Source of the DNA: a virus
Lineage: Duplodnaviria; Caudoviricetes
Reading direction: 5' to 3' (one strand)
IMG/VR virus record: IMGVR_UViG_3300013121_000004
Location: 32,001-96,000 of that record
DNA length: 64,000 nt
This document shows, one piece after another, positions 1,712-27,869 of this stretch. The notes under the pieces are model-generated. The model did not search any database. It was not told the origin of the DNA and worked only from the letters and a program-made list of their open reading frames with translations. Every line of letters starts with the position of its first letter. Positions within the stretch are counted from its first letter, which is position 1. The position numbers and the translations under genes were made by a program.

Positions 1712-2190
1712 CTTACCACAGATTCCTGCTGAAGGCTAGAAATTAGAGCATCTTGCTCAAACTCCTTTAGTTCGTCAGACTCTGTCACAATTCGAATATC
1801 TCTAATTTTAACGTCACCGATACTAATTTCTACGTTATCTGCTACGCGTTTAATGAAAAGCGCCGCTACAGACACGTTGGAGCGTCTGTATCTGCCTGTA
1901 ACGTTGCGCAGGGATGGGCTGAGAACAATCCAACTGCCCCGCAGATGTGTTGGGTATACGCGTACATCATCCTTGAATTTAGCGATTCCGTACGTGTGTT
2001 GAGAAATACCAGCAACAGACTGGATTCTGGGCATTTCTGTCATTGCACGCCCTACATGCACCGCAGCTACTGAGATAATAGAACTAATAGTATTTAAGCT
2101 ATTATAGTGCCCAAATTGGCCTGAACGTGCGGCTTCTTGCCCTGCCTGTTGCAATGATACCAACGCATTTAGGTAATGGGTATTAGGCAT
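1708..2190 (-). CDS. hypothetical protein
   Basis: ORF track; coupled to the GATase gene. Confidence 0.6.
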   Translation of the reverse strand: MPNTHYLNALVSLQQAGQEAARSGQFGHYNSLNTISSIISVAAVHVGRAMTEMPRIQSVAGISQHTYGIAKFKDDVRVYPTHLRGSWIVLSPSLRNVTGRYRRSNVSVAALFIKRVADNVEISIGDVKIRDIRIVTESDELKEFEQDALISSLQQESVVS

Positions 2191-3496
2191 TAACTGTTTC
2201 TTTCTCCTCAGCTACTTCTTTTGTTTCTTCGAATGCGTCGTCTAGCACAGCCATTAGTGTTTCGTACATGCCCGTCTGGAATTTGGTATGGCAACATAGC
2301 TCTAGATTCGCATCGTCAATAACATCTCCACTATATGCTAGGTGAATACAAGGGATGTCTCTATCGAAACACCCTTCACATAACTTGGAAGCCCAAGTGT
2401 CACATTCAGAGTGAATCATACCTACCATATCTTTATATGCCACTAAGATAGATGTGGTGTTTTCCTTTACCGCTTCGTCCTCTAGGAGCATGTAGCAAGA
2501 ATAGCAGATTGTAGTCTCATTCCATCCAGTAGCGGAGATGATGCATTCATCCTCCCCTCCTGTTAAAACATCTTCGTTGCAGTAGAAACATAGACCTTCT
2601 TTACGGTATCTAGCGTACCCTTCTTCTGTGATCTCTTCTAGTTGATTGTCTTGTTTTAGTTTCTCCTCTAGAGTCTTGCCTTCTTTGTTGTAAGAAGAGT
2701 TCTCGAATAGCCACTGCTGTAGTGCGGCGTCATCCGAATCGTCATCGTTCGGTACTGGCTCCCACACTCCCGGAGAGCGGAGACGATACGTAACATTATT
2801 CATAACCATGTAGGAGTCGCTATCCGCGTACTTATACTCTTTGCGACTTTTATTTTTCATCGGCACATACTTACTATTCCTACGATTATCAGTGGACTTA
2901 AACCCGATGCTCGCGCCAGCCGTCGTAGCAGCAGCAGATCCCCAAACTCGGGATGCTGTGAAAGTATTATTCGAGAACCAACGCTCTTCATTCCATGTGC
3001 CCATAGACGAATTGATGATATTGACTTTGCGGTCAGTATCCAAAAACGCCAGCTTAGAGTAACCAATGTAACTGCGGACTAGTTCGCGCATTGCTGTGTG
3101 CGCCTGCCAGCCGACAGGCAATCGCTTTAGAATTTCATCAACGAATACACGAGTGTCTGATCGAGAATCATTTACAGGAATATCGATTTTGATAATACCG
3201 TTGTGTACAACAGCCTCTTGCTCTGTAACTGAGAACGGGTGAACATTGTCGATGCTCTTGACTCCATGCGTTCCGATGCGCCAGTGTAGGACGAATGGAC
3301 TGTCATCCTTGTATTTATCGTGGTCTGGATAGAACATCTCCATAGCAGTGGTAAGTTCCATTGCCTTTTTGATTGTCAGTTTGTTATTCTCGTCTACATA
3401 CATGTAACCAAAGCCGTCCGGGTTGTTGGCCCAGCAGTTCTCGAACTCTTGCTTCGTGATTTTCTGTTCAACATTAAGGACACAAATGATGCAAAT
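2183..3496 (-). CDS. class II (Ntn) glutamine amidotransferase with Cys-rich C-terminal extension; probable ATT start
   Basis: Extending the ORF upstream gives (M)CIIC...NPDGFG...HWRIGTHG...NVHPF...HNGII...SDT, the GATase-II motif series. AGAGGT lies 8 nt before ATT at 3496. Confidence 0.85.
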   Translation of the reverse strand: MCIICVLNVEQKITKQEFENCWANNPDGFGYMYVDENNKLTIKKAMELTTAMEMFYPDHDKYKDDSPFVLHWRIGTHGVKSIDNVHPFSVTEQEAVVHNGIIKIDIPVNDSRSDTRVFVDEILKRLPVGWQAHTAMRELVRSYIGYSKLAFLDTDRKVNIINSSMGTWNEERWFSNNTFTASRVWGSAAATTAGASIGFKSTDNRRNSKYVPMKNKSRKEYKYADSDSYMVMNNVTYRLRSPGVWEPVPNDDDSDDAALQQWLFENSSYNKEGKTLEEKLKQDNQLEEITEEGYARYRKEGLCFYCNEDVLTGGEDECIISATGWNETTICYSCYMLLEDEAVKENTTSILVAYKDMVGMIHSECDTWASKLCEGCFDRDIPCIHLAYSGDVIDDANLELCCHTKFQTGMYETLMAVLDDAFEETKEVAEEKETVNA

Positions 3497-3513
3497 AGTA
3501 GTATACCTCTTTC

Positions 3514-5289
3514 TTAAGATACAATTACAGATGGCAGTACTTCTGAAAGTACAGGATATCTATCAGAATTACTTAGGACGAATTCTTTGTACGTATTGCT
3601 TACCTCGTACCTGACCGCACCGACAGGGTATGGAGTGCCCTGGTTTACATCCCAGATACTGATAGGTATTGTCTTAGAAAAATTCCACATACTGTGTGCG
3701 AACTCTACGCTTTCACGCAAGAACTTCTCATCTGCTTTAGACTTGAAGTATCGCAGTTCTACAGTGTTATTTGGGGATAAGTTAAGTCCGAGATACCGGG
3801 TACTTGCTAGGCGAATAATGCGCCTTCCGTAGGCATAATTCTCGATTTCACTTTGCGACCACGTATCCATACTGTACCTACAGTAGTTATTTGGTTGCCT
3901 GCCAGCCATTCCAACGATAGTAGGCCGCATGTACTTGTGGAACATGATGAAATTGTACATGGTAGACGGGTTGAACGAGGATTTACTTAGATGTAAGTGC
4001 ATACCAGCTGTTCTAGCTGACGTACGAATCCCGTTTAGCTCTGGGTGCTCAGCCTTTCCTCTCCTAGAGAACAAGTGCATTGGGAATTCTTTTTCCCACC
4101 ACCCAAAATCACCGGGATCTGTCACAATCTCTACTCCGTGGAGTAGAGAGCCGTCGTTTTTTACGTACGCGAATGGTACTGATGCCCCATCGTTAAGCAA
4201 ATTTGTGACGTAAGCGGTGAACTCTCTTCGATTGACATCGCGCTTCAGCTCTACCTCAAGCTCCATACCAATGAAAAGGTTGTTTACACTATTTACGTAC
4301 TTTGTTGTCTTCTTTTCCGGTAGTCGGAAGATTGGTGTTGGTTTGTAGCCGTATGGGAAAATTATGCTCTTCTCGTTTTCTCTTCGCTCACATTCACAAC
4401 ACATGTATTCCTTATTAACTGCGTCAACAGCGCACAGGTCTCTGCTGAGGTCATTATATGCGTCTATGATTACATCATAGCAGGCTACACACCTATATTG
4501 CTCATATTGGTCAAGGTATTTTTCTCTACATTCAGTGCATACTGCGTAATACAATCTTTCTCTTATCCATTGAGGCATCGGCACACTATTGACTACTCGT
4601 ATGTATCTAGCTACTGTCTTGCCCCCTTGCTCGTATATAGCCCATTTTGTATTACCGCACTCAACACAGGCTGTGACGTTACAGTTATGATTCATAGGGA
4701 CTACAATTCTGTTTTCATTGATGGTTAAATCGATGTACTCTCCATTCACCATCAAGAACGAGTCTTCACATGCTGTACAGGTGCCCGTGTCTAGTAATTC
4801 TGTACATTCGTTACATATGCCATTATGGATATTAGTGTTATTATCAATTAGTTTACATAATGAACAGACCCCAAACGTGTAATGGAACCCTGCTGCATTA
4901 CTGCCTGACCCTAGGATAGAGACACCAGTCTTTACACCACGCACTTCGTAATGACGCGTTTCTAGAAGTGCAGTGGGTTCGGATATTACAAGAACACGAT
5001 TCGCAAGGCTAGTTGGTTCTACATTTAGATGGGTACCGTAAGGAAGCCTTCCTGTGTTTATGTAGACGCCGTAAGGAAGTCTCCACATAATAGCCGATTG
5101 ATTTGCTGGCTCGCCCCCTGGGGTGTATGCTGCAATCGCTTCTGGGGCGTAAATCATAGTTGGTCTAGCGTTTGTGATTCTAGTTATATTCGTAACAGTA
5201 GTAGTTCTATTAGTTGATGCTTGCTGCGACGTGTTTACTGCATGTGCATTTGTTGTCACTGTTACGCGCACATTAGCTGTACTTGGCAA
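3514..5289 (-). CDS. putative amidoligase (COOH-NH2 ligase, GS/GCS-like fold) with N-terminal CxxC repeats
   Basis: GMELEVE, KNDGSL..GVEIVT, AGMHLHLS, RY..LN, TVELRYFK motifs. Confidence 0.85.
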   Translation of the reverse strand: MPSTANVRVTVTTNAHAVNTSQQASTNRTTTVTNITRITNARPTMIYAPEAIAAYTPGGEPANQSAIMWRLPYGVYINTGRLPYGTHLNVEPTSLANRVLVISEPTALLETRHYEVRGVKTGVSILGSGSNAAGFHYTFGVCSLCKLIDNNTNIHNGICNECTELLDTGTCTACEDSFLMVNGEYIDLTINENRIVVPMNHNCNVTACVECGNTKWAIYEQGGKTVARYIRVVNSVPMPQWIRERLYYAVCTECREKYLDQYEQYRCVACYDVIIDAYNDLSRDLCAVDAVNKEYMCCECERRENEKSIIFPYGYKPTPIFRLPEKKTTKYVNSVNNLFIGMELEVELKRDVNRREFTAYVTNLLNDGASVPFAYVKNDGSLLHGVEIVTDPGDFGWWEKEFPMHLFSRRGKAEHPELNGIRTSARTAGMHLHLSKSSFNPSTMYNFIMFHKYMRPTIVGMAGRQPNNYCRYSMDTWSQSEIENYAYGRRIIRLASTRYLGLNLSPNNTVELRYFKSKADEKFLRESVEFAHSMWNFSKTIPISIWDVNQGTPYPVGAVRYEVSNTYKEFVLSNSDRYPVLSEVLPSVIVS

Positions 5290-5298
5290 TTTTTACTC

Positions 5299-6366
5299 CT
5301 ACGCCGGTACCAGTTTCTTTAGGTTATGATTGGCAGTGCGTTCCAGATTTTCGATTCTCGATAGAGTCTTGTTGTACACTTCCTCTAGAAACGCGTATAG
5401 ATGAGGATATGTTTTGCGATTTCTATATAACCACGCTAGAAATTCCATAGTGTTGCTAATCTTCCACGCTGGCATATCACGAGTATGCGCCCACGCAGCA
5501 TGCGCAAACTCAATGTTCTTCATGATGCGTGAAGGGTTGATGTTGGACTTAAAGTAGCGTAGTTCGATAGTATTATAATTTGTCAAATTAACTGCGCGAT
5601 AACGACTAAAGTTGTGGTGGCCTCCGCCTCTCTTTAGTGTTTTGACAAGGTGCGCTTTGTACGCTGCATCATTTTCAAACTCCCACCAGTGGTTCTCTCC
5701 TCGTTGCGCTACACGGACAATCAGATTTTTGTTTAGATTATGGAACATAACAAACTTCCAAATGTGGAGCGATGTGAATGAGTTACGAGAAATATGTACG
5801 TGCCCACCTGCTGAGGATGTATGGAAACCCTTAAAATACTTCTGCAACTCTGTAGCGTAGGTTGCGAGGCTATCGTAATTCTCGTGCCAATAAGCCAGAG
5901 ATGCTGGATGGCTTACGATTTCTACACCATAATTGAGGCTTGAATCTGGCTTGTACCAGAAAAACCGCCCATAATTATATTGCTCCTTCCAGTTAAGGTG
6001 GTGTGTTGCTAGCAAGCCTTCCATCGTAGAGTGTCCACTGCGTGTCTCTACTTCTAGCTCCGTGCCGATGTAAGGGGTTTTGAAAATGGCTTTATCGTTT
6101 CCCCCTAGAATAACGCGCCTGCCCATAGTTTTGAACTCAGTTAACGATTGATGGAAGTTGATTGCGGGATTCTCGTAACGGATGTTAATGTTCTCGCCAG
6201 TACGAGAATCGTATGTCGATGTCGTCTCATCATCATCGTCATAGTCATCATCGTCATAATTGTCGTCATATCGTTCGTTGTCGTCATATTCTTCATCGTC
6301 ATAATTGTCGTACTGCTCTTCTTCTACTTCTTCCAGCGCAGGTGCTGTTGTGTACGAACTAGGCAT
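5299..6366 (-). CDS. putative amidoligase (COOH-NH2 ligase) with acidic N-terminus
   Basis: GTELEVE, KPDSSL..GVEIVSHP, GGHVHISR, RYRAVN, TIELRYFK motifs. Confidence 0.85.
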   Translation of the reverse strand: MPSSYTTAPALEEVEEEQYDNYDDEEYDDNERYDDNYDDDDYDDDDETTSTYDSRTGENINIRYENPAINFHQSLTEFKTMGRRVILGGNDKAIFKTPYIGTELEVETRSGHSTMEGLLATHHLNWKEQYNYGRFFWYKPDSSLNYGVEIVSHPASLAYWHENYDSLATYATELQKYFKGFHTSSAGGHVHISRNSFTSLHIWKFVMFHNLNKNLIVRVAQRGENHWWEFENDAAYKAHLVKTLKRGGGHHNFSRYRAVNLTNYNTIELRYFKSNINPSRIMKNIEFAHAAWAHTRDMPAWKISNTMEFLAWLYRNRKTYPHLYAFLEEVYNKTLSRIENLERTANHNLKKLVPA

Positions 6367-6721
6367 TGTTAGATACTCCTTCTTCTTCTGCTGATTCTAC
6401 TTGTAGGTTCTTGCTTACTTCTTCCCAGACTAGTAGATCCCTTGCCTCCCGTGCTTTGATAAGAATAGCGCTCCCATCTGCTACTGTAAGTAGAGTCTTC
6501 GGCCCAAATAGCCCGAACTCATTCCACAGCGCATTTCCACATTTACCGCATAGAGGCCAGAATGTTCGTTCTTTTGCTTCTGACGCACTTTGATCAATAG
6601 CTACTCGCCCTGCACGAGAGGAGCATTCCTTACATCGAGCAAAATAACCGTTACCACGAAAGATATCTCGTACTGGAATTTTGTATTCACGGCCTAGTGT
6701 AAATGTAAAAGTATCAGTCAT
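6359..6721 (-). CDS. zinc-finger hypothetical protein
   Basis: Two CxxC pairs. Confidence 0.6.
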   Translation of the reverse strand: MTDTFTFTLGREYKIPVRDIFRGNGYFARCKECSSRAGRVAIDQSASEAKERTFWPLCGKCGNALWNEFGLFGPKTLLTVADGSAILIKAREARDLLVWEEVSKNLQVESAEEEGVSNNA

Positions 6722-7022
6722 AGCTTAGTACCAACCCTGCTTCCTTTGTCATGAAGTCTTTCAACTTTTGTGCTAGTTCTTTGTTGGAAATAGACGCCCC
6801 CGTATTAGCGGGCCGCCAGTAAACACGTTCGAAAATAGGGCACCCATTACGAAGCATATCTAAGTCTATAATTGCTTGTGTGCGGTCTTCGCTGCTCACA
6901 TCATACAATACGCTCGATGCAGTGAAGCGCCCAGTAACCTCCCCTAGCAGAGCTAGGGGATGGGCATCGGGACGTTCTTCTAGAAGGCGAATATACTTCT
7001 TAGCCAGTTCATTAACTTGCAA
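6714..7022 (-). CDS. hypothetical protein
   Basis: GAGGT plus TTG start; overlaps neighbours. Confidence 0.6.
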   Translation of the reverse strand: MQVNELAKKYIRLLEERPDAHPLALLGEVTGRFTASSVLYDVSSEDRTQAIIDLDMLRNGCPIFERVYWRPANTGASISNKELAQKLKDFMTKEAGLVLSYD

Positions 7023-7398
7023 GTGTTACCTCTTCAATTGCGTCGTCTACCTCGGTGTTCTGCTTTTCATTGAACATGAGGCAGCTCTTAATTACCTCTC
7101 CCATGTTTCGTACTGATTTTGTAAGACTATCTTCTGCTTTTACTAACTGGGCTGCTTTACGCATTTCTATGGCATCTACCATATCCAAGTAAGCACAATA
7201 CACATCAACAGTGTAATCGTAAAGACGCATCAGAGTTACCATAGCATTGTGTAACTCTTTACAGTCATCTAGGTTAAGAGCGAGCCAGATTTTTTCATCC
7301 GGGTCATTCTCTTTGTCTAGCTTGGAGATACAGGTGTTTAAGGTTTCATATAACTCTTTAGCGCGACTACTCTTCATAGGCGCTGTGTGTCTACCCAC
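7012..7398 (-). CDS. hypothetical helical protein
   Basis: ORF track; operon packing. Confidence 0.6.
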   Translation of the reverse strand: MGRHTAPMKSSRAKELYETLNTCISKLDKENDPDEKIWLALNLDDCKELHNAMVTLMRLYDYTVDVYCAYLDMVDAIEMRKAAQLVKAEDSLTKSVRNMGEVIKSCLMFNEKQNTEVDDAIEEVTLAS

Positions 7399-7789
7399 CT
7401 ACTACTACTGCCTCCCCGATACGAGGGCTAAGATGGAAATCAAGAGACGGAGAATTGATTGGGCTGGTTACAGTGATGCCTTCAAACATATCTTGTAGGC
7501 TTACCTTTCCCCCTTCTTCTGGAATTAGATTGTATTGAAGATGGCCGACCGCATCTGCGATAGCTACATCACGTCCCCACTTCCTGTTGTAAAGCTGTGT
7601 ATCCGAACACACAGCGATGCCTGTGTAAATACGTCCGTTGTTGGGGTTGTATACGGATACAGCGGTCACACCGCCATGCGGGAGGAGGTTCTTGCCGCTT
7701 CGGTCATACTTGCGACGATGTGCGAACTGTACCTTGAATCCGAATTCTTCGAGACGCTTCCAGTTAGTGTTTACCTTGTTAATAGCCAT
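7391..7789 (-). CDS. phage protein with G-x-A-x-C...G-R-x-x-A motif (N4 gp49/Sf6 gp66-like)
   Basis: TGIAVCSDTQLYNRKWGRDVA; AGGAG RBS. Confidence 0.5.
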   Translation of the reverse strand: MAINKVNTNWKRLEEFGFKVQFAHRRKYDRSGKNLLPHGGVTAVSVYNPNNGRIYTGIAVCSDTQLYNRKWGRDVAIADAVGHLQYNLIPEEGGKVSLQDMFEGITVTSPINSPSLDFHLSPRIGEAVVVGG

Positions 7790-7801
7790 GTTAAGTTTCT
7801 C

Positions 7802-8155
7802 CTACGTGTAATAGATGTTCTTGATTCCGGCGTCAGAAAGTGCTTTAGCACATCTCTGACATGGGCGGGAGAGCCTAGGATGTCCTGCCTTATCTATCCT
7901 AGCTACATAGATGTCTACCCCTTCAGTGTGTTTAGCTTTTCTAAGTGCGTCTATTTCTGCATGAACACTAAGACCGTACGGAGTCTTTACAAAGTCAACC
8001 GAGTACGTACTATTGCGTTGCTTGTTGTAGCCTGCTGCAATAATTTTTCCTCCGTTAACCAGTATGGCTCCGTGCCTTTTATTACACGTTGATTTCAATG
8101 CTTCGTTGAGTGCCATCCGCATGTAGCGGTTGGCTACTGTTACTTGTTGTTCCAT
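7802..8155 (-). CDS. zinc-dependent cytidine/deoxycytidylate deaminase-family protein
   Basis: HGAILV...GYN, HAE and PCxxC motifs. Confidence 0.85.
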   Translation of the reverse strand: MEQQVTVANRYMRMALNEALKSTCNKRHGAILVNGGKIIAAGYNKQRNSTYSVDFVKTPYGLSVHAEIDALRKAKHTEGVDIYVARIDKAGHPRLSRPCQRCAKALSDAGIKNIYYT

Positions 8156-8166
8156 GTGTATTCCTT

Positions 8167-8733
8167 TTAGAAGTCTCCGCTAGCTACTTGCAAGCACGTA
8201 AGCCCTAGCTCTCGCCACATAGTAACTACTCGATCTCTATCGTCAAGTACGAACAGGACATTATATACTGACTCAATCCTGTTCTTGTAGATTTCTTCCT
8301 TGATGATACGGTCGTCTCTATAGTCTTCGCTACTGCGCATGTATAGAGGAAATTCTGATAGCCACCTTCTTGGGTTGCCAATTGACGGGAGCGAATGCAG
8401 CCACTCTAGTGTAGGGGCTCGATGGTCTTCACTTCTTCCGCTAACAAATACAGGAGCTACTCCCATGCTATCGTAGATAGCATGAATGACGGTAAATACA
8501 GGCACATTTACCGCATCCGTGCGCCCACACACGGATGCGTCATATGGGCTACGCATACCGGGTGTTAGAACGTCTTCTCGCTCCTGAATCTCCCAGTACT
8601 TACCACGCTTATTCTTATTGAATAGAGCCAGCGTGCCGTCTAGGTCTACTACGATTGCTGGCCTACGCGTGTCGGCGTTTTGTAGCTTCGCGAGGAACGA
8701 CCAAGACGATTCTACCGGAGAAATGCTTGCCAT
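8167..8733 (-). CDS. HAD-family polynucleotide 3'-phosphatase (T4 PseT/Pnkp phosphatase-domain-like)
   Basis: DLDGTLA, SGR, MR...D.R.D..IK, DDR..VV.MWR..G..CLQVA.GDF. Confidence 0.85.
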   Translation of the reverse strand: MASISPVESSWSFLAKLQNADTRRPAIVVDLDGTLALFNKNKRGKYWEIQEREDVLTPGMRSPYDASVCGRTDAVNVPVFTVIHAIYDSMGVAPVFVSGRSEDHRAPTLEWLHSLPSIGNPRRWLSEFPLYMRSSEDYRDDRIIKEEIYKNRIESVYNVLFVLDDRDRVVTMWRELGLTCLQVASGDF

Positions 8734-9061
8734 TTTTCTACTCCTTCGTAGTCAAGTAATGTAGCTAGAAACGAGCCGAACATATAACATGCCGTAAGAT
8801 ACGCTACTAACAGTAGCTCTTTAGCCAGCGTCACTTAAAACGCCCTCTAAATCTAGCACTATATCTTCGATGACTTCAATTTTTTCTTGCGTGGTTAATA
8901 GTTCTCCTAGCTCTCCGCTAGCGACGCAGTCGATGATCGTTACTGTCATCTCTATCATGCAATCGAAACAAGCCGGGTCTGTGTACGTTTTCTCTTTTGT
9001 AGATGATTGGTACATATATTCGGCGGGGCTTCCGCATGATCTACATACAATATGCAACCAC

Positions 9062-9319
9062 CTACTGCTGTGTGGCATTAAGAATTTTATTTTCATATCG
9101 AATAGCAGACATATAATCGACATCTACGTTCGACCAGTCATTATTGTTCCTGATTGCCATATCGAAGCGGAAACGCCATAGGATATTCGCGAGGATCTGT
9201 ACTGACTGGCTGTCTTTGCCAAGCATCTCGGCAAGCAGAGTGATGACTTTATCTGCTTGGTCTGCAATATCTGTATCATTAAAGATCATAGGGTCAAATC
9301 GAGTATCTTCAGTTTCCAC
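9062..9319 (-). CDS. hypothetical protein
   Basis: GAGGAG plus GTG start. Confidence 0.55.
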   Translation of the reverse strand: METEDTRFDPMIFNDTDIADQADKVITLLAEMLGKDSQSVQILANILWRFRFDMAIRNNNDWSNVDVDYMSAIRYENKILNATQQ

Positions 9320-9737
9320 TACGTGTTCTCCTCTTAGTGATAATCACTGTATCCGGGCCTTGCGAAGTAACCTTCGCTTTGTTCTTACTGCCGGGTGGCC
9401 GTCCTCTTCGTTTGGACTGCGAAGGTGGCGTTTCTACCGGAGTTTTCACTACTTCCGGTGTGTTCTCCACAATTACATCTTCCTCGGCGTTAGCGTCAAA
9501 CTGCGGCCTCTGGTAAGTCTTTTTATCTCTGATGTTTCCATCCCTGCATATGTGATAGTCTGTTGAATATTCGTTCTCAAGTCGCTTATGCGTGCTTTCA
9601 TATGGGCGATAGTTAACCCAATACATCTTGGTGCATAGCTTACCATCGTCGCATACATATACGCATCTGTTATACCAACCGTGTGGCTGTTTCAGGTCAA
9701 AGTTCAACGGTTGTTCTGTGGCTTTACGTTTTACCAT
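9309..9737 (-). CDS. hypothetical protein with AT-hook-like motif
   Basis: KRRGRPPGSKNK. Confidence 0.6.
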   Translation of the reverse strand: MVKRKATEQPLNFDLKQPHGWYNRCVYVCDDGKLCTKMYWVNYRPYESTHKRLENEYSTDYHICRDGNIRDKKTYQRPQFDANAEEDVIVENTPEVVKTPVETPPSQSKRRGRPPGSKNKAKVTSQGPDTVIITKRRTRSGN

Positions 9738-10095
9738 AAATTGTCCTATCTTTGAATAACTCTTTGACTTTTATAGCCGTAGTGCTTAGCTGTTCTGTTA
9801 CTTCGTTTCTGATAGTCTCCAATTTTCGTAATGACACTTCAGGTGAATTCCCCACCACCGACACATTAAAGAGTACTTCATTGTCTTCTCCTCCATAAGC
9901 CATAAATCTAATTGCAACGTATTCTGATTCATCGCGGGGATACCTTTCGACTTCTACGTAAAGCCCTTTATTGTGCGCGATAATCGCCCAACAATCGGAT
10001 TGATAACTGTAGCTAGAGACATCCCATCCGTCAGTTTCAGCTTGTAGGCCGAAGTATTGCTTGGCTTTTTGTTTTAAGTATTCGTCCGATACCAC
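9724..10095 (-). CDS. hypothetical protein
   Basis: AGGAG plus GTG start. Confidence 0.6.
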   Translation of the reverse strand: MVSDEYLKQKAKQYFGLQAETDGWDVSSYSYQSDCWAIIAHNKGLYVEVERYPRDESEYVAIRFMAYGGEDNEVLFNVSVVGNSPEVSLRKLETIRNEVTEQLSTTAIKVKELFKDRTIYGKT

Positions 10096-10424: not shown

Positions 10425-10427
10425 GTA

Positions 10428-13674: not shown

Positions 13675-13686
13675 AATACCTTACCT

Positions 13687-14220: not shown

Positions 14221-14222
14221 TA

Positions 14223-14732: not shown

Positions 14733-14754
14733 CGATCCATCCCCTATTTGTTTT

Positions 14755-14830
14755 TGGCGCGCCCGACAGGACTCGAACCTGTGACACGTAGCTTAGAAGG
14801 CTACTGCTCTATCCACTGAGCTACGGGCGC
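14755..14830 (-). tRNA. tRNA-Arg (anticodon TCT), CCA encoded
   Basis: GCGCCCG/CGGGCGC acceptor stem, TAGCTCAGTGGATAGAGC D arm, GTAGC-CT-TCT-AA-GCTAC, GGTTCGAGTCC, 3' GCCA; 76 nt. Confidence 0.95.
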
Positions 14831-15033
14831 GTGTATTACTTAGTCTTGTTTATTGGCGCAGTATGTTTCCCATTCTGCTTTGAACGCTTCTACAAGTTCT
14901 TCAGCAAACCCAAGTCGTTTAGCCCCTGCTACGGCTTTGAAGCATGAATCTTCCATTCGGGAATGATTCGTGCCATTGTTTGAGATACTCTTGTTCCCGT
15001 AGAGAGATTAACTCTCGCACCGTCATCAAGTCG

Positions 15034-15696
15034 TTACTCATTGACATAGCTGTTCAATTCTTTTTGCATATTGATTCGCGCTTGAGCTTCAAGTTTATCA
15101 TGGAAGAAATTCGTAAGGTAGATCCTAGGGCGAGCTAGGGTGCTTTCCAAGAACTTTTTACGTTCTTCCACGAACGTCTTGTGAGAGAACCCGGCATCAG
15201 TATACTCGTTATATACACCCCACCTGTATTCGGAATAGTTGTACATATCACCTAAGATAGCCATGTCTAAGTCCATCAAGATATCATGCGTTCTGTACGT
15301 GATATTACTATTATGGCTTTTAGTGCCGTTGATCAGGCAAGATACGCGATCAATGGCTCCTAGTGCTAAGTCCGACGGTAGCGCATTTAGAAGGAATGCT
15401 GCTGCTACTTGGGCGCTACGTTCTTCGTTGTCAGTGCGTTTAACATCATAAACGACATCGTGGAACCAGATAGCGCACTCGAGTTCCCATCTTTCCGTGG
15501 CAGTTAGCTTAAGTTCTACCGTGTTCTGCATGTCTTCTAACATCTGTAGCATGTACATTACATGACTAAGATTGTGGTAGTACCTTCCACTATAATTCGA
15601 GGTAAGCGTCCAGATAAAAGGCCATCCATTAAAATAAGAGATGAATCGCTGCCACTCTTTAAGTACTGGATATAGGCGTGGTTCTGTACCAATCAC
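15034..15696 (-). CDS. HD-superfamily metal-dependent phosphohydrolase
   Basis: RYYHNLSH, WFHDVVYD, NEERSA, DLDMAILG. Confidence 0.85.
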   Translation of the reverse strand: MIGTEPRLYPVLKEWQRFISYFNGWPFIWTLTSNYSGRYYHNLSHVMYMLQMLEDMQNTVELKLTATERWELECAIWFHDVVYDVKRTDNEERSAQVAAAFLLNALPSDLALGAIDRVSCLINGTKSHNSNITYRTHDILMDLDMAILGDMYNYSEYRWGVYNEYTDAGFSHKTFVEERKKFLESTLARPRIYLTNFFHDKLEAQARINMQKELNSYVNE

Positions 15697-16220
15697 TACA
15701 GGAAACTCCTAAAGGTATATCGAATGCAGTCAGCGATCTCTTGGAATGTGTAATCCAAGGTGTCGTTTAGCTCTGATGCTACCACATACACGTCTCTACC
15801 TTCCAGAAGGTCGTCTTCAATCCCTTGAATTGCGTCTTCTAGCTCGATCGTCGCTTCGTCTATAATCGAGTAGTATTTTTTAAGAGTCTTACTGATCAAC
15901 CAAGGAGGAATAGCGAGAGGAATATCGCTACGATTGTTAGGTTGTTCCGTAGCCGAGCCCAGTTTGGCTGCCAACCCTGTCGGGATGTAGCACATAGATT
16001 CGATCGTAACAACGTCCTTGTCTTCTTCGACTAGGTAGTATAGTTTGCCTATGGATTCACTATACTGCGGGTTAATCGTCCATGTTCCGAAATTGCTGCG
16101 GTCACACAATACCCCGAGACAGCAGAACCTGCCATTTTGTCGTAGTTTTCGCCGTATTTGTGAGTACCCACCAGATTCGAGCGCATCAATCCACTCCTTA
16201 ACCAACTGCACATCTACCAT
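15696..16220 (-). CDS. conserved phage hypothetical protein
   Basis: W..ALESG.Y.Q...L...CCLGVLC...LND....F.EIAD.I. Confidence 0.7.
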   Translation of the reverse strand: MVDVQLVKEWIDALESGGYSQIRRKLRQNGRFCCLGVLCDRSNFGTWTINPQYSESIGKLYYLVEEDKDVVTIESMCYIPTGLAAKLGSATEQPNNRSDIPLAIPPWLISKTLKKYYSIIDEATIELEDAIQGIEDDLLEGRDVYVVASELNDTLDYTFQEIADCIRYTFRSFL

Positions 16221-16242
16221 CTCATTCTCCTACAGTAAATTC

Positions 16243-16317
16243 CTATTTGCCTTGTTTATACTTTCCGCTTTCGAGTTCATCGACCCAACTCTTGATGAGT
16301 TCGATATTAAGAGTCAT
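16243..16317 (-). pseudogene. 24-aa remnant paralogous to the N-terminus of 15696..16220
   Basis: MTLNIELIKSWVDELESGKYKQGK* versus MVDVQLVKEWIDALESGGYSQ. Confidence 0.65.
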
Positions 16318-16525
16318 AGAAAGAGACACATTCCTTTCGAGCTAACTCTGCGTTTTCTTCGTACGGGCCTTTGATGTATCCGTCAAAGATTACCGCTACT
16401 GTGCCGAGTTCACCGAGTTCATCGACGGCTGCGACCACCCGGTTTTCGTCAAAATCAGGCGGGTCACACACTACCCTGATAAGCAACATGCGTGTATGTT
16501 TTGGAATCTCAATGGGGACGTACAT
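16307..16525 (-). CDS. hypothetical protein
   Basis: ORF track. Confidence 0.5.
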   Translation of the reverse strand: MYVPIEIPKHTRMLLIRVVCDPPDFDENRVVAAVDELGELGTVAVIFDGYIKGPYEENAELARKECVSFYDS

Positions 16526-16547
16526 ATTTTCTATTTTCTGTGTTTTA

Positions 16548-16623
16548 TGGTGGGCCTGCTGGGATTCGAACCCAGAACCTACAAGTTATGAGCTTGTTGC
16601 TCTAACCGTTGAGCTACAGGCCC
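16548..16623 (-). tRNA. tRNA with CAT anticodon, most likely Ile2 (lysidine-type); CCA encoded
   Basis: GGGCCTG/CAGGCCC acceptor stem with C4-G69 and C5-G68, ACAAG-CT-CAT-AA-CTTGT, GGTTCGAATCC, 3' ACCA; lacks initiator features. Confidence 0.9.
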
Positions 16624-16634
16624 TAGCTTACGTT

Positions 16635-16655
16635 AGGGTAACATATAACGCGTTA
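16635..16655 (-). promoter_or_regulatory. candidate extended -10 promoter (TGT-TACCCT) for the tRNA, with adjacent TAACGCGTTA palindrome
   Basis: Same -10 hexamer as both promoters at 30350-30413; lies about 11 nt upstream of the tRNA. Confidence 0.5.
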
Positions 16656-16660
16656 CTTTG

Positions 16661-16888
16661 CTAGCGCGTTCCCGCCGATGTGAATGCGCGAACCATAGTA
16701 GGATTGCCGCTAAGGGACACAGGAAGCCCAAGGCGCTCGCTGACTTCGACATTCATCTGCTTAAACGAATCGCGCCGACACTTCATGCATCGATTGTTGA
16801 GATACGTAACTGTAATGTCGAATGCGCGGCAACCATCACACTCGAACTTGGCGTTGCGGATAGTAAAGACCTCTGGAAGGATGTTCAT
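16661..16888 (-). CDS. zinc-finger hypothetical protein
   Basis: Two CxxC pairs; AGGAG RBS. Confidence 0.6.
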   Translation of the reverse strand: MNILPEVFTIRNAKFECDGCRAFDITVTYLNNRCMKCRRDSFKQMNVEVSERLGLPVSLSGNPTMVRAFTSAGTR

Positions 16889-16963
16889 TTTGTTTCTCCT
16901 GTTAGTTTAGAAATCGATGAAGTCGTCTTCAACACCACCGGCAGCATCGTAGTGTGCAGATGC

Positions 16964-17167
16964 TCATTTCTCCTTGAACTTGATGTTATCAAATGGTGTG
17001 CAAGTGTGCTGATCTCCTGATTTAGTCTTGAGTACCACGATTACTTCATCCTCGAAGCACTTAGGGTACTGACGAACCGTAATGATAGCAGTCAGTGAGA
17101 TGGATGTGATTGTAACGGCGATAGCTACAATCAGTACTACAAGTACAATTGCTTCTCGTCTAGTCAT
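16964..17167 (-). CDS. small membrane-anchored protein
   Basis: N-terminal hydrophobic helix. Confidence 0.55.
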   Translation of the reverse strand: MTRREAIVLVVLIVAIAVTITSISLTAIITVRQYPKCFEDEVIVVLKTKSGDQHTCTPFDNIKFKEK

Positions 17168-17627
17168 CTGCTGCTTCTACTGCACTCATGGCTTTACGCA
17201 TCGCTTCAAGCACAGGCAAATTAGCCTCCGTAGGTACGTAGATTACCTCAGAAGACCCATCATGCAACCCTTCAACCCATCGCCACAAAAGATATTCATT
17301 TGTAATACTGTTCCCGATGATACGGTTAGCTTCTGCGATACCACGCGCACGCTCTTCGTCAGTTTGCCGCTGAAGCTGAGCAGCTTCAAGCGCCGCCTGC
17401 GCTTCAAGTACCTGAATCTTACGGTCTTGTTCGGCTCGTTTGTAAGCCGCTTCGCCAGTTTTTTCTTGCGAATAGACGCGGTACTTAGGTACTCCCCAAC
17501 AAGTACCTCCAATCAGAGCTACGACAAGCACAATAACTGCCATAACCATCAAGAAAAATACAGCCGATCCAGACTCATTGCTTCCGGTTTCGTTATACAC
17601 TGGTTCCACCTTTCTTACTAATCGCAT
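17160..17627 (-). CDS. SPFH/band-7-related membrane protein
   Basis: TM helix, coiled coil ERARGIAEANRIIG.S.T.EYL, and IYVPTEANLPVLEA. Confidence 0.7.
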   Translation of the reverse strand: MRLVRKVEPVYNETGSNESGSAVFFLMVMAVIVLVVALIGGTCWGVPKYRVYSQEKTGEAAYKRAEQDRKIQVLEAQAALEAAQLQRQTDEERARGIAEANRIIGNSITNEYLLWRWVEGLHDGSSEVIYVPTEANLPVLEAMRKAMSAVEAADD

Positions 17628-17955
17628 CTAGCGCCGCCTTAACTTTGTTTCGGATTTCCGTGTAGATTTCCTGTTGCCCCTTACCCGACAGCCATTGGCT
17701 CATATTGTGCAAGAAGTGGTCAAACGTAAGCGGGGCAATCAGAGTGAGATCATCTGTGTCAGTTACCCATTCGAACGGGCTCGGACATGAACACCCTGAA
17801 TCTAGCGCATAGTATAGCTTTCCTGTTGCCTTTTCTCTCCATACGACGAGCATATTGAACGAGTACATTTCGGCAATGTCAACATCCGCGATAATCTCGA
17901 AGCCTAGTTTTTCGGGATGGTAGTAGATGTTGTGTTGGAATTTTACTGGCCCCAT
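17593..17955 (-). CDS. conserved phage hypothetical protein
   Basis: YSF...VVW...DSGCSCPSPFE motif. Confidence 0.65.
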   Translation of the reverse strand: MGPVKFQHNIYYHPEKLGFEIIADVDIAEMYSFNMLVVWREKATGKLYYALDSGCSCPSPFEWVTDTDDLTLIAPLTFDHFLHNMSQWLSGKGQQEIYTEIRNKVKAALDAISKKGGTSV

Positions 17956-18094
17956 TAGTACAGCCCTCCTAACAGTTTATACGATAGAAGCACCGCCCAC
18001 ATCACGCCTAGAGCGATGACTGTCATTCCAAGCGCAAATTCGATTGCGAATAGTGTTAACTTCAATGGCTCATTGCCTGCTTTCAATAGCTGCC

Positions 18095-18337
18095 TTAGCT
18101 TCGACATAATAGGCATCCGCCTAGTCCATTTCTATTTGCTGCTCGTAAGATTTCAAATGCTAAGTACGCAGCTAATTCCCCCGCAGCGTTCGCATCAGGT
18201 GTAGCGTCTCCGTTTTTGTCTACGAACCCGCCGTATTCGTCTCTAGCGTGCGGATTGTTACGTGCGTATTCTCGAATCTCAGCCACAAGGAGTGAACCTA
18301 GATGCCTGATACTTTTTTCACTTTCTGCTAGTGCCAA
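18095..18337 (-). CDS. hypothetical protein
   Basis: ORF track. Confidence 0.5.
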   Translation of the reverse strand: MALAESEKSIRHLGSLLVAEIREYARNNPHARDEYGGFVDKNGDATPDANAAGELAAYLAFEILRAANRNGLGGCLLCRS

Positions 18338-18611
18338 TACGCTGCTCCCTACAATTATTCTCGTAGATTTGACGAGTAATAGATGGACATTCTACATAGA
18401 TAAGTTCCTCCCTATCTTTTACTCGAATAGTGCAGCTAACGTAGCCGTTATCATCAGAGTCAAACGTGCCGCATTTAGCTGCGATTACTTCGTATCCGAG
18501 GTCTTCGGCCCACTTGGTGGCGTTATCTGCATTGTTATCAGCAATATCTCCGCATCCAACTGACAGCATTCCTACTGCTGCCAGACTGACCACAAAGAAC
18601 TTCTTGTACAT
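18318..18611 (-). CDS. putative lipoprotein
   Basis: MYKK plus hydrophobic stretch plus LSVG-C lipobox; GAGGAG RBS. Confidence 0.7.
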   Translation of the reverse strand: MYKKFFVVSLAAVGMLSVGCGDIADNNADNATKWAEDLGYEVIAAKCGTFDSDDNGYVSCTIRVKDREELIYVECPSITRQIYENNCREQRIGTSRK

Positions 18612-18737
18612 CTACTTACTCCTCTTCAAGGTCGATATCTCCACTCCCGCATCGCGGGTATTCTTCTACAGGTCGTTTGATGCGCTTACCGCAGTCGTAA
18701 CACTTGAACATTTACTGGCTCCTTACGCTCAGTCTTC

Positions 18738-18929
18738 TTAGCCGAATAGTGTATCTAGGGTTGCTATCACAATAGATAAGATCAAGACAGTCCAACCGAC
18801 TACCGCTATCACGGCGATGATTGAAGGAGGATACGAGAACATAACTACCACCGGAGGCGCAAAGCATAGAGCAAATAAGAATAAGATAGTGACTATGGTT
18901 ATGAATACAACCGCAGTCTTACGGGTTAT
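18738..18929 (-). CDS. two-TM small membrane protein, probable ATA start
   Basis: 64-codon hydrophobic frame fills the gap exactly; ATA overlaps the upstream TAA (ATAA). Confidence 0.45.
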   Translation of the reverse strand: MTRKTAVVFITIVTILFLFALCFAPPVVVMFSYPPSIIAVIAVVGWTVLILSIVIATLDTLFG

Positions 18930-19357
18930 CTTGGATCGTTGTAGTAATGTTTATCGTACGGTTTCTCTCCTTCCCAGTGTGGTTCAATCCAAGTCAAAGG
19001 CGGAACCTTTAGCTTGTTGTCTTCATTGGCTAAGCAGTACTGGCACATACACGCTCGTACAATCGCTCTCTGCACTCCACAACTGACGCACTTCGCGATA
19101 CGTGGTAATGCCCCGGCTGTGTCTGCGATAAACATCGCGATGTTGCCAATATCTGCTGTTAGTTCTCTGACTTTATCTACATCTCGTCTCTTTCGTATCT
19201 CCACGTGTAGCTTGGAGACGTGATAGTAAAGCTCTTGTAGCAGCGTAGCCATGTCAAGGGTAATCCACTCGCCCTTCCAAGCGTTAGCTTGTAGCTCTCT
19301 ACGCATCTCCATAAGGTACGCATTAGCTGCATTGTTGTTTGCTAGGTTGTCACTCAT
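18926..19357 (-). CDS. MazG-like/all-alpha NTP pyrophosphatase-like protein with zinc finger
   Basis: KGEW...LLQEL...EL.ADIGNIAMFI, followed by CxxC pairs. Confidence 0.45.
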   Translation of the reverse strand: MSDNLANNNAANAYLMEMRRELQANAWKGEWITLDMATLLQELYYHVSKLHVEIRKRRDVDKVRELTADIGNIAMFIADTAGALPRIAKCVSCGVQRAIVRACMCQYCLANEDNKLKVPPLTWIEPHWEGEKPYDKHYYNDPR

Positions 19358-19448
19358 ACATCTTCCTCTTTATGGCACGAACAATGACAGGATCTACCAT
19401 CACACCACTTGTGATTACCTACACCGCAGTAGTATGACTTGATTTTCA

Positions 19449-19748
19449 TCAGTCAGCGCTTCTCTTTCTGTTTATCCATTTTTCGAAGCTGATTAGTGTA
19501 TTGTCTTCTTGCTTGGTAGGCTCCTCCTGTCGCTGCGTAGGGGGGTTTGTGAGTGTGTGTACGATGATTGCTCTCGCTTGCGGGTGATTCATCGCCCTGA
19601 CCCACATAAGGAGAAAGTCATCAATCTCCAACTCATCGCCCCACAGATTGCATTGCGTGCACTTGCTTTGCTTTTCGCCGCTAACACCTGTGTAAGCGCG
19701 AAAGCCGTGCCCGCATTGTATTTGCTTTTCGGATGAGCCAATGAACAT
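19449..19748 (-). CDS. hypothetical protein
   Basis: ORF track; TAATG coupling. Confidence 0.55.
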   Translation of the reverse strand: MFIGSSEKQIQCGHGFRAYTGVSGEKQSKCTQCNLWGDELEIDDFLLMWVRAMNHPQARAIIVHTLTNPPTQRQEEPTKQEDNTLISFEKWINRKRSAD

Positions 19749-19990
19749 TACTCTTCAAACTCACAAGCGCCGCACATATAGTCAGCGCCAGACCCTCCGG
19801 TGTAACGTCCGTGCTTGCACGTGTCTCCGGGATACCCAGTCCATCCTTGCGGATAGAGTGCTTCGTATCGGGCGAGGCAATCGTCACAGAATACCTTCTC
19901 GCCTCCCCTCCACTTGCCGCACGGATAGATGATAGGTGTACCATCCTTCCGTGTCCCGACATCGACTTCGTTGGTGCATTCTGTAGGCAT
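19748..19990 (-). CDS. Cys-rich hypothetical protein
   Basis: YPGDTCKHGRY...CGACE; GAGGAG RBS. Confidence 0.6.
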   Translation of the reverse strand: MPTECTNEVDVGTRKDGTPIIYPCGKWRGGEKVFCDDCLARYEALYPQGWTGYPGDTCKHGRYTGGSGADYMCGACEFEE

Positions 19991-19995
19991 TGTTC

Positions 19996-20166
19996 TTACT
20001 CCTCTTCTTCGTTGCGAACGCTGCGGTTACTGCGACGACGTTCAATGCGCTTCTTGACCACGCGAAGTTTACGATTCCAACCGTCATGCCCGAAGCAACA
20101 GAACCAGAAGTTCTTACCACGATGGCGATGCGCCTCAGTCCCCAACATACGCTCTTTATTAGACAT
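19996..20166 (-). CDS. 56-aa basic hypothetical protein (below ORF-track cutoff)
   Basis: GGAGG plus ATG; MSNKERMLGTEAHRHRGKNFW... Confidence 0.55.
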   Translation of the reverse strand: MSNKERMLGTEAHRHRGKNFWFCCFGHDGWNRKLRVVKKRIERRRSNRSVRNEEEE

Positions 20167-20189
20167 AGCATGTCCTCCTCAGTTATTGC

Positions 20190-20576
20190 TTACCCGTATA
20201 CGATCTCATTGAACAGACCAAGTTGCACGATAGCGTCAGCATCATCAGCGTCGAAGTCTGTGTTATCAGCATCGAATCTCCCCGCAATGACGAGCTTAAA
20301 GTCGTTAACCATCGCCCTCCGATAATCGTTATCTGTATTTTCGAACTTGGTAATAAAGCGTTCGACACCGCGCTTAATCATTTCACGGTTGATAATGCAT
20401 GGTTCTTCGTCTTCTTCGTAGGCACGACCCCGCGCTTCGTATCCTTCGTAGTCTTCATCGATTCCCTTGTTGTCTTTCGACCAGCGATACGAAGTAGCTT
20501 CGAACCAGTAACCAATACCTCCTTCCATTGCGGTAGTGAAGATGTAGTGATAAAGCTTATCTTCTTCTGTAGCCAT
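20190..20576 (-). CDS. conserved phage hypothetical protein
   Basis: TAMEGGIGYW...DADDADAIVQLGLF.EIVYG. Confidence 0.7.
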   Translation of the reverse strand: MATEEDKLYHYIFTTAMEGGIGYWFEATSYRWSKDNKGIDEDYEGYEARGRAYEEDEEPCIINREMIKRGVERFITKFENTDNDYRRAMVNDFKLVIAGRFDADNTDFDADDADAIVQLGLFNEIVYG

Positions 20577-20578
20577 TA

Positions 20579-20779
20579 TTACCTCGTTCCGGGTGGCGCA
20601 TACGGTGGGCGCGGTGCTGGCGGCGGCGTATACGCTTTAGATGCATACAAATTTGCCAAGCTGTTAAGTGTGTTTGCCTTCCTGTACTCCCAATCCATGT
20701 CGCCTTTATGTATTGCAGACGTTAGCTCATAGAACGCTAACCCTATTTGGTGTTTGATTTCACTTTCGGTTGGCAACAA
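20579..20779 (-). CDS. hypothetical protein
   Basis: GAGGAG plus TTG start. Confidence 0.5.
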   Translation of the reverse strand: MLPTESEIKHQIGLAFYELTSAIHKGDMDWEYRKANTLNSLANLYASKAYTPPPAPRPPYAPPGTR

Positions 20780-21017
20780 ACGTCTTCTCCTCTAGAATTT
20801 CGAGGATTCCCTTGAGGTAGTAGTACGTGGTCGCGCTAGGAAGAATCATCTTGGTAGCAAACAGGAGCGCGACAGTTTGCAGATACGTCGGCGTGAATGA
20901 CACATCGAGGCCGCGCGAAATCACCGGGGTCAGAGCCCAAAGGATAAGCGCATTGATGAACAAACCCACGTACGTGGTAAACAGGCTAGAGATATATGCT
21001 TTAGTTGACTTCTTCGT
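20760..21017 (-). CDS. membrane protein, possible ACG start (GTG at 20969 is the alternative)
   Basis: GGAGG 6 nt before in-frame ACG, giving MKKSTKAYISSLF...; two hydrophobic segments. Confidence 0.5.
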   Translation of the reverse strand, partial: TKKSTKAYISSLFTTYVGLFINALILWALTPVISRGLDVSFTPTYLQTVALLFATKMILPSATTYYYLKGILEILEEKTFVANRK

Positions 21018-21888
21018 CGGTTTCCTCCGTATTGTTGAGAATCCAGTTAGCTACTTTTCGTGCTGCGCTTGACGTGAGAAGGATTTGATCATAGACGCTA
21101 ACATCTGTCATTCTCTGAGTGATACCTACGCCTCCGTTTTTTGTTTTCTGGATCTTCGTATCACCAATTACGAGATGGTTTGACGCAGTATTCTTTACTA
21201 GCTGCATCAAGTCCATCATTAGACCGTGCACATGCAAGGTTTCCCAGTTGAACAGATGATCGAATCCGCTTGTCTCGGCTGCATGTACGAGGCTATCTAC
21301 AGCCGTGAATATAAGCGATGGTGTCGAATAATACTCACCTTCCTTAGAGGAATGATACACCTGTTTAGCTTGAGGGCAAAACATGCGTACAAGCCACCAC
21401 TCTAGATCTACGTCGCTATTATGCAGTAGTAGACTAGTACGGGCTTTCTCTAGTACATCGCCCCAATCGGTATCTTCTTTTGTTAGTTGATTGAGCGCGA
21501 CTATAAAATCCTCGTAGAAAGTAGTTGTCGGGCAATCCCTGATGAATTTAGGGATGATTGTTTTGATAAACCAATTACCCACAACCACGTCATGTACTGC
21601 TTTGTTCTCCACACGTCGTGACATACAGAGCGTAGGCAAAATATTTTGTTGCCATTGTGCTCCTAGGAGAGACTCTGGCAAAACAGCGACTTCCATGTTA
21701 TCGATAAGCAATCCAATAGCAGGATTGATGAAGAACGGCGGCATATACTCGTCGTATTCGTCGTAGTCGAGCATTACCATTGCTGCTCGATGCGTAGGAG
21801 GGAGCCACTTTCTACGATCGATGTACCGTAGCATTGAGTTCATACTACGGAACTGTTTGAGTTCCTTTTCAGACATTCCTTCTGGCAT
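21001..21888 (-). CDS. hypothetical protein
   Basis: 295-aa ORF. Confidence 0.7.
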   Translation of the reverse strand: MPEGMSEKELKQFRSMNSMLRYIDRRKWLPPTHRAAMVMLDYDEYDEYMPPFFINPAIGLLIDNMEVAVLPESLLGAQWQQNILPTLCMSRRVENKAVHDVVVGNWFIKTIIPKFIRDCPTTTFYEDFIVALNQLTKEDTDWGDVLEKARTSLLLHNSDVDLEWWLVRMFCPQAKQVYHSSKEGEYYSTPSLIFTAVDSLVHAAETSGFDHLFNWETLHVHGLMMDLMQLVKNTASNHLVIGDTKIQKTKNGGVGITQRMTDVSVYDQILLTSSAARKVANWILNNTEETDEEVN

Positions 21889-21905
21889 TAGTTGTTCTCG
21901 TCGTG

Positions 21906-22103
21906 TTATTCGTACTTAGCGAACAATGAGTCACGGAATGACAGGACACCCATAAACAAGGCGATCAGATTCCCATTGTAGTGTACTTCGAGCACTCCTC
22001 TGTCGGCTGTGTAAGTCATAGTCGAGCTACTAGGGACACGAAGAAACTTTCGATCATAGTCCGCGAAGAGGATGACGATTTGCTTTGTTGTCTCGTTACC
22101 CAT
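21906..22103 (-). CDS. hypothetical protein
   Basis: ORF track. Confidence 0.55.
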   Translation of the reverse strand: MGNETTKQIVILFADYDRKFLRVPSSSTMTYTADRGVLEVHYNGNLIALFMGVLSFRDSLFAKYE

Positions 22104-22109
22104 ATTTAG

Positions 22110-22586
22110 CTATACCTTCCTGTAGTGTGGCGCTGGTTTGAGGTCGAAAAAAGTCCCGTTTAGCAGATTGTATGCTAGGAACCCAATTCGCCCGTTACCA
22201 TCTATCCACGGATGAATGTACATGAGTTCCTTGTAAAACTCGTGCGGTGTAAGTGCTTTTTCTTTGACAGCCCCCATCAAATTTTCGAATGCACGAGGAA
22301 CTAACTTATAGTGTAATGAAGAGCCTCCATTCTGGAATGTTACAGGAACTTTTCGTAATGTTCCATGTGGATAATCATTACTATTTCCCATAGCCAGCCG
22401 GTTTGCTTGGCATAGACTATACGCTGTAAGCGGCATAGAATTATTTTCGGAATACACTCGCATATACTTCCATGCTTCAAGCAGATTGATTACTGCTTTG
22501 TATTCTGTTTCTCCTTGCCGAATTACTTCTTCTGCGATAGGATGCATTACAGAAGACATGAATTTATGTGGAGTGAGATTACTTAT
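22110..22586 (-). CDS. Fic/Doc family protein, probable ATA start (ATG at 22559 is the alternative)
   Basis: IHPWIDGNGRIG Fic motif; AAGGAG 7 nt before in-frame ATA. Confidence 0.8.
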   Translation of the reverse strand: MSNLTPHKFMSSVMHPIAEEVIRQGETEYKAVINLLEAWKYMRVYSENNSMPLTAYSLCQANRLAMGNSNDYPHGTLRKVPVTFQNGGSSLHYKLVPRAFENLMGAVKEKALTPHEFYKELMYIHPWIDGNGRIGFLAYNLLNGTFFDLKPAPHYRKV

Positions 22587-27865: not shown

Positions 27866-27869
27866 GGTA

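Follow-up and report, generated by a model that had tools for sequence, protein, structure and literature searches.

Do four genes in one arm of a phage genome begin at ATT, ATA and ACG codons, or does translation start at the canonical codons further downstream? The window, a stretch of 64,000 nucleotides (bases 32001-96000 of a 105.9-kb IMG/VR phage contig, IMGVR_UViG_3300013121_000004, with an estimated completeness of 85%), has a leftward gene direction from position 1 to about 28000. A preliminary description of this arm reported non-canonical starts in a glutamine amidotransferase (GATase) gene, a Fic-like gene, a small membrane-protein gene and a small open reading frame (ORF) with two transmembrane segments, and all four sites are present exactly as described. 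We consider it likely that these are ordinary protein genes starting at near-cognate codons of AUG. Taken together, the analysis suggests one ATT start (GATase) that is proven as far as sequence can prove it, one well-supported non-canonical start (membrane protein), one probable ATA start (Fic) and one doubtful ATA start (two-transmembrane ORF).

No close relative was detected among deposited and known phages by megablast and tblastn, which matched only distant GATase homologues. The comparison phage used below (the relative) is a phage present in at least 24 contigs, with a GATase 78% identical at the protein level. Codon positions, homology, purifying selection and recurrence in independent assemblies were established directly. 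Many starts in this genome carry AGGAG-type Shine-Dalgarno (SD) sites at a distance of 4-10 nt, and at least a third of the first canonical starts have none. The SD spacers of the GATase gene (8 nt), the Fic-like gene (7 nt) and the membrane-protein gene (6 nt) are inside the 4-10 nt range of the canonical starts, and the near-cognate codon falls in the Met1 column of the homologues for GATase (seven homologues) and Fic (one outside homologue, aligned without gaps). The cases rest on homology and selection and not on the motif, since the pattern of an SD site plus a near-cognate codon is no commoner than chance.

The following features were detected for the GATase gene.

2183-3496, minus strand: class-II (N-terminal nucleophile, Ntn) glutamine amidotransferase gene, 437 codons, with a Cys-rich C-terminal domain; ATT at 3496-3494 followed by TGC (catalytic Cys)
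3505-3510, minus strand: Shine-Dalgarno site AGAGGT, 8 nt before ATT, immediately following the stop codon (3516-3514) that ends the upstream amidoligase-like gene

The reading frame contains no ATG, GTG or TTG between the upstream in-frame stop (3562) and the ATG at 3403, and a start at this ATG gives a protein 31 codons shorter than the ATT start. The protein translated from ATT aligns from residue 1 with phage GATases beginning M-C-I, namely gp07 of Methylophilales phage MEP402 and the GATases of Marvin-like mycobacteriophages. Five metagenomic homologues also begin with M-C, giving in total seven homologues with this start and an invariant Cys2; the M-C-I/V N-termini occupy the same alignment columns. 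C2 and the Asn-Gly pair at 99-100 (N99, G100) are invariant in the homologue alignment, and the PHROG profile alignment to this protein begins at position 2. The preliminary description had argued that class-II GATases need Cys right after the initiator Met. This is not absolute, because some members of the class carry cleaved propeptides (for instance, Bacillus subtilis PurF), and it holds here in that every homologue starts with M-C.

The 31-codon extension was additionally compared between the window and the relative by the ratio of nonsynonymous to synonymous differences per site (pN/pS). This ratio is 0.19 in the reading frame and about 1 in the other frames; over the following 150 codons, pS is 0.68 and pN/pS 0.08. 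For both this extension and codons 6-16 of the membrane-protein gene the off-frame ratio is at least 0.8. The GATase of the relative has been called as a 400-aa protein from an internal ATG in at least 24 contigs, and AGAGGTG-N7-ATT-TGC was found upstream of the called gene in all eight contigs read, from eight samples. A more distant relative, L012, with a 51% identical GATase, has ATG-TGC. Recent decay of an ATG had been named as an outcome that the homologue alignment could reveal; the alignment places ATT in the 78% relative as well and ATG in L012. Because ATT-TGC recurs in the relative and the extension is under selection, sequencing error and recent decay are excluded for this codon. 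We regard the start at ATT 3496, as claimed before, as proven to the extent that sequence allows, and ATT is taken to have arisen from ATG in the common ancestor of the window phage and the 78% relative, with the gene functional since. The protein would still begin fMet-Cys (fMet, formylmethionine), and Met removal would free the catalytic N-terminal Cys; the initiator tRNA places Met at starts other than AUG as well (bioRxiv 10.1101/063800), and a mature N-terminal Cys would accordingly be available in this GATase.

The assignment to the class is based on profile and structure comparisons. The GATase family profile matches the GlmS glutaminase domain (1xff) with an E-value of 1.4e-7 and a register within two residues. 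The AlphaFold2 (AF2) model has a predicted local distance difference test (pLDDT) score of 88, and its best Foldseek match is 1xff_A (E 5.6e-7, TM-score 0.60), with further matches to GlmS, EgtC and PurF glutaminase domains. The Pfam GATase_6 gathering score is not reached by the window protein (15.2 bits versus a cut-off of 27), and the homologues give E-values of about 1e-6. The phage enzyme resembles the class-II GATases GlmS (1xff), EgtC (4zfj) and PurF in fold, in the Cys nucleophile after Met1 and in the Asn-Gly pair in GlmS register, but differs from them in its low identity (about 19%), the Cys-rich C-terminal domain in place of the synthase domain, the location in a phage amidoligase cassette and the ATT initiator. 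The C-terminal half (window 2183-2900, minus strand) is Cys-rich and zinc-ribbon-like, and one homologue matches Pfam DZR. Two amidoligase-like genes, at 3514-5289 and 5299-6366, precede the GATase gene. A search of viral contigs for related loci with the GATase query gave no match.

The second case is a small membrane-protein gene.

20760-21017, minus strand: small membrane-protein gene with two transmembrane segments, 85 codons if read from ACG 21017-21015; alternative starts ATC 20993-20991 and GTG 20969-20967
21024-21028, minus strand: Shine-Dalgarno site GGAGG, 6 nt before ACG, within the 3'-terminal part of the 295-aa gene upstream, which stops at 21003-21001

The first canonical start of this gene is GTG 20969 (codon 17), and translation from ACG gives an N-terminus MKKST followed by a transmembrane segment. 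The relative, in which gene callers left this gene uncalled, has an identical GGAGG-N6-ACG-AAG-AAG. In place of the window's GTG at codon 17 the relative has GTA, and it offers no canonical codon before the TTG at codon 29, inside the first transmembrane segment. Between the two copies 53 of 258 nt are different, with neither a stop nor an indel, and pN/pS is 0.26 overall and 0.32 for codons 6-16, upstream of GTG; the other frames are interrupted by stops and give 1.0 and 3.2. When the arm was scanned for selection, this gene and the GATase gene were the only open frames whose sequence ahead of the first canonical start gave an in-frame signal free of stops. Since codons 6-16 are selected and GTG is not conserved, translation should begin upstream of about codon 6-9, where only non-canonical codons are available. 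A non-canonical start is thus well supported. The earlier claim of a start at ACG 21017 stands as far as a non-canonical start is concerned, with ACG itself only the best candidate: ACG behind GGAGG is most likely the start, and the alternative is codon 9, which is ATC in the window or ATT in the relative (there with an ATTAA overlap with the upstream stop).

Searches for outside homologues of the membrane protein gave only the window's own truncated form and low-complexity transmembrane matches, and related loci were found neither in viral contigs nor in two metagenome-contig scans; for the upstream 295-aa protein, viral contigs likewise gave no related loci. The gene is a divergence island: 20760-21017 and L013:544-798 differ at 20% of the nucleotides, whereas the neighbouring genes for the 295-aa and 128-aa proteins show 98% and 100% identity to the relative. 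This suggests either a mosaic exchange or fast evolution of the protein. An ORF of about 55-66 codons (window 20579-20779, minus strand), with a TTG or GTG start, lies between the membrane-protein gene and the 128-aa gene; it is open but uncalled in the relative.

The Fic/Doc-family gene was proposed to begin at ATA.

22110-22586, minus strand: Fic/Doc-family gene, 158 codons if read from ATA 22586-22584 and 149 codons from ATG 22559
22594-22599, minus strand: Shine-Dalgarno site AAGGAG, 7 nt before ATA and 34 nt before ATG

The ATG at 22559 has no SD site of its own. The only outside homologue, P0008, is 63% identical, has 158 aa, aligns without gaps and has ATG in the ATA column; its SD site (GGAGAGG) is followed by 7 nt, the same spacing as in the window. 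P0008 has Ile at the position of the window's Met10, and His7 and Phe9 are conserved. AAGGAG-N7-ATA is identical in four contigs of the relative. A 6-nt SD site located 34 nt from ATG in a 57-nt spacer is otherwise hard to explain. A hairpin bringing this site near ATG, in the style of T4 gene 38, was considered and rejected, because by eye only 4-bp pairing was seen. The proposal of an ATA start is therefore retained as probable on the basis of the P0008 ATG in the ATA column and the same 7-nt spacing, and ATA 22586 is, somewhat more probably than an even chance would have it, the main start of the gene.

The protein matches Pfam Fic (PF02661) with a score of 36.8 bits versus a cut-off of 24. 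Its motif is HPWIDGNGRIGF, which compared with HxFx(D/E)GNGRxxR has F replaced by W and the last R replaced by F, and AMPylation activity of the Fic-like protein is uncertain. The protein is short (149-158 aa). The AF2 model with the 9-residue extension has a pLDDT of 44 and is a poor model.

The fourth site is located in a small ORF.

18738-18929, minus strand: small ORF with two transmembrane segments, 63 codons from ATA 18929-18927; ATA overlaps the upstream TAA 18928-18926, no Shine-Dalgarno site

An in-frame TAA (18953-18951) closes the frame upstream, leaving it open from 18950 onward. At the corresponding position the relative carries a homologous, highly diverged ORF with two transmembrane segments; the local alignment score of 65 was reached by none of 2000 shuffles. 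For the half with the first transmembrane segment alone, 8 of 3000 shuffles reached the score, and this segment is conserved at the protein level. The homologue has its own ATG and SD site 11 codons further upstream, with a 47-nt overlap with the upstream gene, and we regard the window ORF as real for this reason. The window stretch corresponding to the 5' end of the relative's ORF is replaced, with a 12-nt length difference and the in-frame TAA at 18953. Upstream of the first transmembrane segment the only near-cognates in the window are ATA and AAG. ATA 18929, in an ATAA overlap, would be the start by elimination, a tentative assignment to which we give somewhat less than an even chance; initiation could be by a ribosome coming directly from termination at the overlapping stop. 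From the earlier claim, the ORF, the ATA/TAA overlap and the lack of an SD site are retained, and the start itself is reached by elimination only.

Are these starts part of a programme? A genome scan for SD sites with near-cognate codons, proposed earlier as a check, gave no excess. In upstream extensions, 15 of 176 in-frame near-cognates had an SD site of at least 5 nt at 4-10 nt, in comparison to 79 of 994 other codons; the SD background rate inside genes is about 4%. AGGAG-N8-ATT at genome position 100585 was a false positive, the true start being the adjoining ATGA-coupled ATG. At genome 4537-4633 (minus strand), 27.4 kb before the window, AGGAG-N4-ATA was detected in an ATAA overlap with the upstream stop, 32 codons ahead of an ATG without an SD site; the extension from the ATA at 4633 is not clearly coding (the region lies outside the compared loci of the relatives). 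To screen for further cases, pN/pS was calculated for every upstream extension in the part of the arm that the relative covers, tblastn being unsuited since DNA similarity aligns all frames. The scan of the arm detected no selected extensions beyond those of GATase and the membrane-protein gene. An extra signal at genome 26834-27076 was rejected as the shadow of an opposite-strand gene.

Neither an IF3-like (translation initiation factor 3) gene or domain nor a peptide deformylase was found in the phage. ARAGORN detected only two tRNAs.

16548-16623, minus strand: tRNA with anticodon CAT
14755-14830, minus strand: tRNA-Arg(TCT)

The CAT tRNA has a paired G1-C72, anticodon-stem pairs A-U, A-U and G-C at 29-31/39-41, and C4-G69 and C5-G68, two pairs shared with E. 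coli tRNA-Ile2. Most probably, therefore, it is a tRNA-Ile2 that reads AUA. No initiator-type tRNA (1:72 mismatch, three G-C anticodon-stem pairs and an anticodon matching an odd start) was found in the genome; the CAT tRNA is not an initiator and therefore does not explain the odd starts. The tRNA-Ile2 candidate and tRNA-Arg(TCT) match a fairly high phage use of their codons (ATA 14.4 and AGA 14.9 per 1000). In a further observation on composition, window 26001-28000 has a GC content of 0.62 compared with 0.43-0.48 in the rest of the genome.

The mechanism we propose is simple. The host initiator fMet-tRNA would read the near-cognate codon on a ribosome held by a normal SD site, with an expected low output of about 1-2% of AUG for AUU and AUA and at most 1% for ACG; in E. 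coli, near-cognate efficiencies are 1-2% of AUG or less (bioRxiv 10.1101/063800). In E. coli, both non-canonical starts and re-initiation without an SD site are repressed by IF3 (PMC2268962), and the genes described here would for this reason be IF3-sensitive. Such sensitivity would be a by-product of the known mechanism, with no evidence of a switch. Which codon the ribosome uses, how strongly the genes are expressed and whether a weak start is adaptive are what we infer here, and not observations.

Several results weigh against near-cognate starts. Across the genome, an SD site followed by a near-cognate codon is no commoner than expected by chance. The Fic region of the window and the relative is identical except for one base, too little difference for selection on the 9-codon extension to show; the gene also has the downstream ATG, and at least about a third of the genes here lack a clear SD site. 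For the membrane-protein gene, ACG and its SD site are inside the upstream gene, so their invariance is also explained by that gene, the window copy could use the GTG at codon 17, and ACG is a very poor start in E. coli (the 0.1-1% class; bioRxiv 10.1101/063800). The two-transmembrane ORF has no SD site, and its counterpart in the relative begins at a canonical ATG located further upstream, in a stretch that is interrupted by a stop in the window; the window copy is possibly decaying or affected by an error in the single contig.

A rival explanation is that translation begins at the downstream canonical codons (ATG 3403, ATG 22559 and GTG 20969), with the upstream motifs being chance or relics and the GATase an inactive truncated protein. 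The rate of SD plus near-cognate occurrences close to background with one clear false positive, the many genes without a recognisable SD site, and the match of only 2 of the 9 Fic extension residues to the outside homologue all agree with it. We nevertheless consider it unlikely: a GATase from 3403 loses the catalytic Cys and the first strand, yet its 31 codons are under purifying selection; the GTG of the membrane-protein gene is not conserved and codons 6-16 are constrained; and in the Fic gene both the 6-nt SD site in the 57-nt spacer, 34 nt from ATG, and the homologous ATG in the ATA column point to the upstream codon. Assembly or base-call errors in the metagenomic contig could create odd codons, as the window's own lineage is known from a single contig and the 5' end of the two-transmembrane ORF has the 12-nt length change relative to the other phage. 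This source is scarcely credible, since ATT-TGC, AAGGAG-N7-ATA and GGAGG-N6-ACG recur in 4-8 independent assemblies of the relative. A +1 frameshift or slide from the upstream gene into the membrane-protein ORF, and perhaps into the two-transmembrane ORF, producing a membrane-anchored fusion, was also considered. Each of these ORFs shares sequence with the 3' end of the gene before it, the frames being open 17 and 8 codons, respectively, ahead of that gene's stop, and GGAGG, which accompanies prfB-type +1 shifts, lies within the overlap of the membrane-protein gene. The overlap shows no slippery or hungry-codon motif, however, the two-transmembrane ORF of the relative has its own ATG and SD site, and MKKST plus a transmembrane segment resembles an independent membrane-protein start, so that we regard frameshifting as highly improbable.

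A deliberate regulatory set, switched on when start-codon fidelity falls in infection (for instance, after host IF3 is lost or modified), would agree with the repression of such starts by IF3 (PMC2268962), with the infC and sigR precedents (PMC5472188) and with the location of all cases in one leftward accessory-gene arm. We find it quite improbable in view of the absence of genome-wide enrichment and of any further selected extensions in the arm, the lack of an IF3-like gene and an initiator-type tRNA in the phage, and the spread of the four genes over 19 kb among about 60 genes with canonical starts. A related, very improbable possibility is that the near-cognate starts of the GATase, the Fic-like enzyme and the two small membrane proteins are a sensor of host initiation fidelity, these proteins being made only when IF3 activity drops; the drop might come from the phage itself, for instance through Fic/Doc-type modification of a translation factor. 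The translational down-tuning suggested in the preliminary description thus survives in its plain form, low expression from weak starts, and finds no support as a coordinated programme, given the lack of enrichment and of extra selected extensions.

Initiation at near-cognate codons remains the reading we prefer, and it has known parallels. The two confirmed natural AUU starts of E. coli are those of infC (encoding IF3) and pcnB (bioRxiv 10.1101/063800; Sacerdot 1996, cited in PMC2268962). The phage genes are like these in having a near-cognate codon (AUU in infC and pcnB) behind an SD site that would be read by the initiator tRNA; the output of infC and pcnB is low and IF3-sensitive. They are unlike them in being phage accessory genes with no known autoregulatory loop and in using ACG and ATA besides ATT. 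IF3-controlled non-canonical starts regulate infC and Streptomyces sigR (PMC5472188). The likeness to sigR (GTC start, IF3-repressed; PMC5472188) is the non-canonical start as a translational throttle; the IF3 link is experimental for sigR and only a possibility for the phage genes. Weak near-cognate starts are thus a known phenomenon of the infC/pcnB type, to which the phage genes add cases.

The consequences are practical for annotation. Standard gene callers strip the catalytic Cys from this GATase and, in this phage lineage, fail altogether to call two small membrane proteins, leading to wrong annotation and function prediction for the amidoligase cassette. The analysis provides a well-documented ATT start kept under purifying selection since two phage lineages diverged (synonymous differences of about 0.35 to 0.7), and adds a plausible rare ACG start as well. 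No new mechanism is opened by these cases, which fit the view that phages keep some accessory enzymes scarce through weak starts.

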